Below, in pieces: positions 46,046 through 47,418 of a DNA stretch of 64,000 bases (position 1 is its first letter; each line of letters begins with the position of its first letter). The stretch is taken from NCBI RefSeq assembly GCF_056712565.1, contig NZ_CM160072.1; one strand, given 5' to 3'. Under the pieces are notes generated by a model. That model was not told the DNA's origin. It made no database searches and worked only from the letters and a program-made list of their open reading frames with translations. The position numbers and the translations under genes are program-made.

Positions 46046-46067
46046 AAAACCCGGCGCTGAGGCCGGG
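46046..46067 (-). terminator. Intrinsic terminator closing the cI operon (tImm analogue)
   Basis: Minus strand CCCGGC-ctcagc-GCCGGG followed by TTTT, directly after the stop of the 250-aa gene. Confidence 0.75.
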
Positions 46068-46072
46068 TTGTA

Positions 46073-46825
46073 TTATGCTGCAAGTCTCTTAACCCAAGTC
46101 TCTCTTTTGGAGAATGGTAGAACTTGGCTTGATTCATGGAAGAGTAAGGAGAGTTGTTGCATTTGATCACCAATTGCTTCGCTGTCTATAACAACAAATC
46201 TGTTGTTATACTCCTCACTTGAAGCTTTAAGATCAATTAGTTTCCCAAGCAATGAGTAAGCACTATTCCAGCTTCCTCCGTGTTTCACGCTTGATGTAAA
46301 AACGTATTTAGGTATGTCGGTTTTTATTGTTACAGGGACGGTAATTTGATGTCCACTCAAGCCATATACGTTTTCACGAAGAGAAAGTGCGTCTCTAAGC
46401 TCTGTGTGATATAGATAATCAATAACCATACTTTCAAACTTTTCAGCTTGAACTGGCTGATACCAGTCTAACGACAAAGTTGATGCGAGTATACCAGCTC
46501 TAATTATGTTCGATGTAATCGCACCGACATCCTTTTCTGTTGCCCAAGCAATGATTTCTCCTCGAGCATTGAGTTCTGCGCCTTCTTTAAGCAGTAATTG
46601 TCGTATCTCATCAAGTCGTTTTTTGGTAAGCGAGATCCCTCTTGCCTCCATATTCATTAAGGCATCGCATCTGTCACTAACTAAATACCTACCATTGACT
46701 TCACGGATAAAGGCACCGACATGCTCTCCATCATCACAGTAAGTGAATGGACTGATAATTCTCAAGGTCTTGCCTATTGGATGGCATTCGAAACCTAGTT
46801 GTGAGATCACTGTTGAGCACATCAT
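46073..46825 (-). CDS. Unknown 250-aa protein, distal gene of the rex-slot cassette (candidate defence component)
   Basis: ATG start overlaps the upstream gene stop (ATGA); no TM segment or motif I recognise; AT-rich. Confidence 0.7.
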   Translation of the reverse strand: MMCSTVISQLGFECHPIGKTLRIISPFTYCDDGEHVGAFIREVNGRYLVSDRCDALMNMEARGISLTKKRLDEIRQLLLKEGAELNARGEIIAWATEKDVGAITSNIIRAGILASTLSLDWYQPVQAEKFESMVIDYLYHTELRDALSLRENVYGLSGHQITVPVTIKTDIPKYVFTSSVKHGGSWNSAYSLLGKLIDLKASSEEYNNRFVVIDSEAIGDQMQQLSLLFHESSQVLPFSKRETWVKRLAA

Positions 46826-47379
46826 ATTCCAAACCCCATTTGCCCCGACTCATCTTCAAGCGGTAAAGGTATTCTCCCAGAGTAAGTTATGTTCAGATGT
46901 TTACAGAAGTAATTCCAATACCCTACCAGGTCATCTGGGTTTATGTCATCTTCGATTGGAAACGCTATTCTATCACTATAGTATCCAGCTTCTTCATAGT
47001 ATACATGGTAGTGAGCACCGTAAATGATATCTTGGTACTTCGGATGATCGACCTTGTAACTATTCGTGTGTTTGTCAAAGTGATAGGTATCTACCGCGAA
47101 AACCCTCTTGTTATGATAGAAAGCAATAATATTTATTTTAGGGTAAGAAATCGGGTCATCAGGTTCTGAATCCTGATCTGGTTTCCATTTCAGTTCAAAC
47201 TTTAGCCCTTGTATAGGTATACAATCCTCATCCAAGGGGATGATATGGGCTTGTAGCCACATATCAGAGCGACTTGGTTTCTGTTTCCATTTAACGCCAG
47301 AAAAGTTAACTATTTTTTTACAATAAAGTACTTTATCAACTTCTACTTGGCTTGGCTGATAATCATCTATTTTTGCCAA
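46822..47379 (-). CDS. Unknown 185-aa acidic Tyr/His-rich protein, proximal gene of the rex-slot cassette (candidate defence component)
   Basis: Starts 39 nt after the cI stop, apparently at TTG after an AGGG RBS (no in-frame ATG or GTG for 39 codons); no recognised domain. Confidence 0.6.
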   Translation of the reverse strand: MAKIDDYQPSQVEVDKVLYCKKIVNFSGVKWKQKPSRSDMWLQAHIIPLDEDCIPIQGLKFELKWKPDQDSEPDDPISYPKINIIAFYHNKRVFAVDTYHFDKHTNSYKVDHPKYQDIIYGAHYHVYYEEAGYYSDRIAFPIEDDINPDDLVGYWNYFCKHLNITYSGRIPLPLEDESGQMGFGI

Positions 47380-47418
47380 TGTTTACCGCCCTGTAAATTG
47401 TAGATAAAAGTGGTTTCA

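Follow-up and report, generated by a model that had tools for sequence, protein, structure and literature searches.

The 64,000-nucleotide stretch of contig NZ_CM160072.1 (NCBI RefSeq assembly GCF_056712565.1) that was analysed here, referred to as the window, carries in the immunity operon of a lambdoid prophage a cassette of two genes, gene A and gene B, located directly behind the cI-type repressor gene. This cassette, a moron (accessory gene cargo) in the immunity operon, occupies literally the rexAB slot of phage lambda; what differs is confined to the cargo that lies between cI stop and terminator. On balance we favour, with considerable reserve, the reading that it is a lysogen-expressed anti-phage module of two interdependent proteins, which protects against other phages. 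This reading was adopted because the slot is shared with RexAB, stk and BstA, because the cassette is exchanged as a unit between immunity types, because B and, more weakly, A are remote homologues of a candidate system nominated by its embedding in defence loci, and because restriction-modification (RM), RES, AbiTii and SIR2 genes are neighbours of distant relatives.

RexAB is the oldest known abortive-infection system, and its site in lambda was compared with the window by DNA alignment, including phage 933W as a third sequence. The alignment showed common flanks and different cargo, in line with the placement in the rexAB slot given by the initial annotation, which had been made from the window sequence without database searches. 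At the left junction, window DNA equals lambda DNA through the cI stop and homology is gone 2–3 nucleotides (nt) past the TGA; at the right junction, homology between window, lambda and 933W starts 2–4 nt before the terminator stem and runs through AACCCGGCCTCAGCGCCGGGTTTTCTTTGCC...AACCAATTGTATTTATTGA. Two counterparts of the window terminator were recognised by homology: the lambda terminator behind rexB and, behind the stk cassette, the terminator annotated as tM in 933W. The cargo of the slot is rexA-rexB in lambda, L0084-L0083-stk-L0081 in 933W, and one unrelated gene of 173 amino acids (aa) in phage 2851, where it stands behind the window's cI allele (99%). The C-terminal domain of the window CI is essentially that of lambda CI, being near-identical from residue ~97 to the end (BLASTP), as the earlier remark on a lambda-type cI 3′ sequence implied, whereas the N-terminal DNA-binding domain differs from that of lambda; in identical phages and in CFT073 the repressor is annotated as cI / LexA family. 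The window N protein has only 41% identity to 933W N, with the ends being shared. The interval between cI and N is a known mosaic hotspot, holding the abortive-infection systems RexAB and BstA (Owen et al., PMC8585504), and the window adds a clean cassette swap at the RexAB site, with junctions at base level, for an uncharacterised protein pair. The coordinates of the features are collected in Table 1.

Table 1. Positions in the window of the cassette, its predicted protein domains and its flanking elements (ORF, open reading frame; HTH, helix-turn-helix; pI, isoelectric point).
Feature	Position	Strand	Description	Basis
Gene A	46822..47379	(-)	185 aa, TTG start, pI 5.3, soluble	ORF list
Gene B	46073..46825	(-)	250 aa, ATG start, pI 5.9	ORF list
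cI-type repressor gene	47419..48120	(-)	HTH + S24 peptidase, first operon gene	ORF
Spacer	47380..47418	(-)	39 nt, cI stop to gene A start; left recombination junction inside	
Intrinsic terminator of cI operon	46040..46069	(-)	stem-loop 46069..46048 + T tract	
Gene A, conserved core	47005..47106	(-)	residues 92-125	alignments
Gene B, N-terminal domain	46478..46825	(-)	residues 1-116, DUF1828	
Gene B, C-terminal domain	46076..46441	(-)	residues ~129-250, predicted restriction-endonuclease-like fold	

The layout of the locus held as initially annotated when checked against the ORF list and the stem-loop: two ORFs of 185 and 250 aa, a 39-nt gap after cI, an ATGA in which the stop of gene A and the start of gene B overlap, and an intrinsic terminator, which has 8 pairs (6 G-C), a 6-nt loop and the tail TTCTTTGCCT, and lies 3 bases past the gene B stop. 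No terminator was detected upon scanning the 39-nt spacer. Because this spacer is free of terminators and the common terminator follows only past B, A and B would be transcribed together with cI from the repressor promoters, like lambda rexAB. A promoter of the cassette's own was considered and rejected, since promoter-like sites in the region were not commoner than in shuffled sequences (5 vs 5.6) and the sole match in the spacer overlaps the gene A start codon. No match to a non-coding RNA was obtained in an Rfam scan of positions 44000–49000.

The proposed TTG start of gene A was backed by an N-terminus, MAK, that is kept in all homologues, and by a GTG at the same position in every enterobacterial relative examined; in more distant relatives the start codon is ATG or GTG. 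This comparison covered the window and the relatives L002–L006 and L015–L018. The conserved weak start suggests selection for low A expression and, along with the ATGA coupling of B, would hold both proteins at a low level and in a fixed ratio. Among homologues with unsaturated synonymous divergence, the median ratio of nonsynonymous to synonymous substitution rates was 0.07 for A and 0.03 for B, and in view of these low values A and B were judged to be real genes under strong purifying selection. The view of the cassette as AT-rich and swapped in stood in so far as its G+C content is 37–43%; the composition failed as a distinguishing mark, since the whole immunity region from sieB to cI is about as AT-rich, and base composition was consequently rejected as a sign of foreign origin.

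Protein B consists of two domains. The N-terminal one carries Pfam DUF1828 (PF08861; E 9.1e-8, residues 26–110), which was also matched by 12 of 13 diverged relatives, and its predicted alpha-beta fold is like that of a type III secretion chaperone or DUF2170; the residues P26, D32, D51, G89 and E90 are kept down to 27% identity. The C-terminal half was predicted to adopt the alpha-beta-beta-beta-alpha-beta core fold of PD-(D/E)xK restriction endonucleases, with S157, G158 and D198 being kept over the same range, together with an acidic side chain at position 214 and, in most sequences, H159. No conserved catalytic D...(D/E)xK was found in B: S157-G158-H159 stands where the acidic residue of strand 2 is expected, and strand 3 has no conserved (D/E)xK, as K173 and K181 vary in distant members. 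A search of the PDB by sequence with the B family gave no match.

Protein A was predicted with confidence to have a beta-rich fold without a solved relative. In an alignment of 11 sequences reaching down to 20% identity (A6), R92, D97, H104, N106, H123 and H125 are invariant and G121 is nearly so; in a second alignment of 24 sequences (A3), R92, D97, N106, G121, H123 and H125 are invariant, H104 being nearly so. These seven residues are regarded as a putative metal-binding or catalytic cluster, their spatial proximity being presumed. Pfam DUF6978 (PF22398) was matched weakly (E 4.6e-4), over residues 104–164 only, and at E ≤ 0.001 by one of 11 relatives. The D-x13-E-x-K spacing in A that had been read as a hint of a PD-(D/E)xK nuclease was discarded, as E62 and K64 vary even among close homologues and the predicted fold of A matches no nuclease; the nuclease-like fold lies in B instead. 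The initial statement that neither protein has a recognisable domain was likewise overturned by DUF1828 in B and, weakly, by DUF6978 in A. An apparent match of the A profile to designed Kelch propellers (SAKe, PDB by sequence, E 1.6e-15) was rejected as not significant, because its E-value is inflated by six identical blades of ~9.5 bits each (i-Evalue ~7). Positions 61–103 of the A-family profile (window residues ~65–113), W..P...R[IV][YF]A[IV]D...HxN, resemble one Kelch blade, probably by chance.

Both proteins are acidic (pI 5.3 and 5.9). The earlier finding that neither contains a transmembrane (TM) helix was reproduced, the maximum Kyte–Doolittle mean over 19 residues being 0.45 for A and 1.19 for B; no signal peptide was found in either, and both are cytoplasmic. 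The absence of likeness to RexA and RexB was also upheld: alignments of the A and B families against lambda RexA and RexB by hhalign yielded probabilities of 0.05–0.4%, and a relationship of A or B to either was rejected at below 1%.

Of all systems in PADLOC, A and B matched PDC-M24 only. B aligned to PDC-M24B from end to end (PDLC04540, E 4.7e-10, residues 2–249 of 250; PDLC04539, E 1.5e-7), and all relatives matched that component as well. A was matched to the C-terminal part of PDC-M24A, weakly and over residues 104–163 only (PDLC04536, E 4.8e-4); among relatives a weak match was seen in 5 of 10, and none in three further A-like proteins. PDC-M24 corresponds to cassette CAS_00098 (FAM_00129>>FAM_00065) and is one of 145 untested PDC candidates that were nominated for their embedding in BREX, DISARM or type I RM loci. 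Like PDC-M24, the cassette consists of two adjacent genes on one strand and in the same order; unlike PDC-M24, its A protein has 185 aa compared with model lengths of 146–151, and the present branch lies in lambdoid immunity operons instead of inside BREX, DISARM or RM loci. By these profile comparisons, B is a remote homologue of its PDC-M24 counterpart and A, on a weak and partial match, probably one too, the pair forming a divergent branch. The claim of a novel defence system was thus retained in part: a defence role is plausible, given the PDC-M24 homology and the defence neighbours described below, whereas the pair is not wholly new, being kin of a listed candidate. NCBIfam returned nothing meaningful for either protein, and the PHROGs families of the two, 2017 and 1960, are both without assigned function. 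A literature search for PDC-M24, DUF1828, DUF6978 and the RefSeq proteins WP_000968518 and WP_001062368 found nothing.

The cassette is far commoner in well-studied E. coli strains than its missing annotation suggests. It is 100% identical in the Escherichia phages ev207, ev017, PhiR57_1 and PhiR63_2, 99.3% identical in a Shiga toxin (Stx) phage of type Stx1a, and present in 240 of 5,426 complete E. coli genomes (~4%) as a single chromosomal copy, always with at least 99% identity. Carriers include CFT073, Nissle 1917, ABU 83972, ATCC 25922, the type strain ATCC 11775 and an avian pathogenic E. coli (APEC) strain, and the AlphaFold database holds identical proteins from UTI89 and APEC O1. The many extraintestinal and commensal isolates among the 240 carriers would fit a lysogenic-conversion factor for host fitness or virulence with no role against phages, comparable to lambda lom and bor, and bstA, which shares the slot, was first linked to virulence phenotypes (PMC8585504). 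We regard such a function as quite improbable: A and B are cytoplasmic and lack signal peptides and TM helices, B has a predicted nuclease-type fold, relatives occur in defence contexts, and, with no copy below 99% identity, descent from a single inherited prophage is the simplest explanation of the strain bias. Beyond E. coli, homologues (59–71% identity for A, 47–84% for B) were found in Salmonella, Klebsiella, Yersinia, Xenorhabdus, Photorhabdus, Providencia, Pectobacterium, Aeromonas and others. Protein A belongs to a small family, with 20 representatives at E ≤ 0.001 among 1.84 billion cluster representatives and four found by a pattern-based scan of ~100,000 species genomes.

Pairing and position were evaluated on 80 IMG/VR phage contigs carrying B at 49–100% identity. 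Gene A stands directly upstream of B in all 80, one of them (L048) with a frameshifted A, and a same-strand gene for a CI-type repressor precedes the pair in 80/80. This repressor is S24-type in 72 contigs (two by sequence inspection) and of the short HTH-only Phage_CI_repr type in the other eight; clustering of all upstream repressors gave 37 groups at 90% identity and 12 at 50%, and cassettes that are 99–100% identical stand behind at least three different repressors. In five of the 72, an extra gene of 113 aa (Pfam DUF3024, E 3e-27) is inserted between cI and gene A (L059–L062 at 5052–5393, L064 at 383–724), so that the slot can take three cargo genes. Divergence of A and B is correlated with r = 0.95 over 41 distinct pairs, A changing ~1.3 times faster than B. 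The pair is hence obligate and tied to repressor genes, but to no single repressor. Its constant position behind the repressor gene would be accounted for by an accessory lysogeny regulator, acting on repressor function, SOS-dependent induction or the lysis–lysogeny decision; the odds of this were put very low, as the pair is found behind at least 12 unrelated repressor families, some without an S24 domain, the same cI allele works without the pair in other phages, and distant pairs reside outside immunity regions, namely in an RM/Abi island, an IS1595 element and a D5-primase element.

In these distant relatives, as in every locus examined, A precedes B on one strand, and each gene for an A-like protein at 20–32% identity has a B-like gene of 231–253 aa next to it downstream, usually with a 4-nt overlap. 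One such pair is part of an island with a type I RM system (HsdM-RhuM-HsdS-HAD-HsdR), YgjP, HEPN/RES, the pair and AbiTii (PADLOC E 1e-33), another precedes a SIR2_2 gene, and a third is located in an element with a D5 primase. At L020 (9196–11756; JGI 3300049830), the pair and a convergent IS1595-family transposase gene lie within 35-nt inverted repeats that are 86% complementary; as these repeats bracket both, the pair is passenger cargo of an insertion sequence (IS). At L022 (9492–11695), a trio of pair and IS1595 transposase is inserted into a tail gene cluster of a phage or gene transfer agent (GTA)-like element, and inverted repeats were looked for around this trio and not found.

Carriage as cargo of IS1595 and other mobile elements, together with two small overlapping genes of which the first has a weak start codon, strict co-inheritance of A and B, and the chaperone-like, partner-binding fold of DUF1828, is what a toxin–antitoxin-like addiction module would show, whose main role would be to stabilise the prophage or mobile element and which would overlap with abortive-infection defence. 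We hold this to be improbable, though a little less so than a regulatory or a conversion role, because searches of Pfam, NCBIfam and PADLOC linked neither A nor B to a toxin or antitoxin family, and because the cassette lies inside the cI operon with no convincing promoter of its own. In addition, L048 (5448–6004, IMG/VR) has A split by the frameshift beside an intact B in an otherwise identical cassette, which would be lethal if A neutralised a toxin B; unless it results from a sequencing error, this makes B an unlikely toxin in need of A as antitoxin.

The cassette was further compared with known systems. As in RexAB, a two-gene cassette on the cI strand, presumably lysogen-expressed, extends from right after the cI stop to the same terminator sequence, in the same slot and with the same flanks. 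Unlike the polytopic membrane protein RexB, A and B lack TM helices, and their folds differ as well, for which reason the ion-channel mechanism of RexB cannot apply to the pair. Stk excludes HK97, and the 933W stk cassette uses the same slot between cI and the common tM terminator, but it comprises four other genes including one for a eukaryotic-type Ser/Thr kinase, and no kinase domain was found in A or B. BstA of Salmonella prophage BTP1 is encoded by an abortive-infection gene directly downstream of the repressor gene, with a presumed common promoter; this link to the repressor locus is conserved (PMC8585504). A and B are likewise encoded right behind a prophage repressor gene, but the BstA system has only one protein, along with a self-immunity element encoded in DNA (aba); the PADLOC scan, in which the presence of a BstA model was not confirmed, showed no similarity of A or B to BstA. 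To Can2/Card1 and Shedu, which combine a sensor with a restriction-endonuclease fold, B shows resemblance at the fold level only, with 7–13% identity, and differs from them in that its N-terminal domain is not CARF, its catalytic motif is not conserved and it has an obligate partner in A.

Several points weigh against an anti-phage function. No experiment on the cassette or on PDC-M24 was found in the literature, and the PDC systems themselves are described as untested; the matches of A to PDC-M24A and DUF6978 are weak and partial; co-transcription of the pair with cI is something we infer from the arrangement of the locus; nuclease activity is doubtful, given that no D...(D/E)xK is conserved in B and that A and B are both acidic; and a defence-island setting was seen in only two distant relatives, the others adjoining housekeeping genes or sitting in mobile elements.

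If the cassette is an anti-phage module, A and B would act as a single unit, probably a complex. With low confidence, B may combine a chaperone-like DUF1828 domain, a fold that typically binds a partner, with a domain for binding or cleaving nucleic acid; since B has no canonical catalytic residues, the metal-dependent partner, whether catalytic or sensing, may rather be A with its invariant Asp/His/Asn cluster. Triggered by a heterotypic phage upon infection, the pair would either attack phage nucleic acid or bring about abortive infection. The specific division of labour with B as nucleic-acid-binding or scaffold subunit and A as metal-dependent catalytic or sensing subunit is the version we favour, though as a speculative proposal held with low confidence.

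Besides the cassette, the immunity region already holds one recognised exclusion gene near N, sieB, located two genes off from the cassette and beside N at 44766..45347 (+) according to the annotation of PhiR57_1 and CFT073. From the size and order of the ORFs, the prophage seems to have inserted beside icd (ORF of 416 aa, 37240..38490), with a putative integrase gene at 38604..39746 (-).

An identical cassette is carried by E. coli Nissle 1917, and by primer sites the window immunity region matches that of its prophage 3. Part of the resistance of Nissle 1917 to lambda and Stx phages was credited by Bury et al. to a "phage repressor (pr)" of prophage 3, whose cloned gene, EcN_1294, was held responsible for ~200-fold protection against both, and according to the same authors prophage 3 must harbour a further factor (PMC5987069). 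The primers used for this cloning map to window positions 48501–48870, i.e. to the cII ORF (48547..48843, +) and not to cI. Overexpressed CII would be expected to drive infecting lambdoid phages to lysogeny, which offers an alternative account of the pr result. An obvious candidate for the further factor in prophage 3 is the A-B cassette. The full proposal, in which A (fold not seen before, His/Asp metal centre) and B (degenerate restriction-endonuclease fold) would together make up an anti-phage system of two proteins that is new in mechanism and has neither an ATPase nor a membrane component, expressed from the repressor operon and identical with the other factor against lambda and Stx phages, is possible and clearly less probable than an anti-phage function as such.

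The logic of morons in the cI operon is already known, and the superfamily has been flagged computationally as PDC-M24; the branch described here is a divergent one, and the predicted fold of A has no solved relative. As the cassette is present in the model uropathogen CFT073, the probiotic Nissle 1917, ABU 83972 and the reference strain ATCC 25922, its role can be tested directly in strains at hand in many laboratories. The cassette has a bearing on the host range of phages in therapy and on the unexplained resistance of Nissle 1917 to lambdoid phages. If defence were confirmed, the PDC-M24 / DUF1828 / DUF6978 superfamily, members of which occur across Proteobacteria in prophages, in IS elements and in RM islands, would gain its first experimental support, and a function would be assigned to the new protein fold of A.

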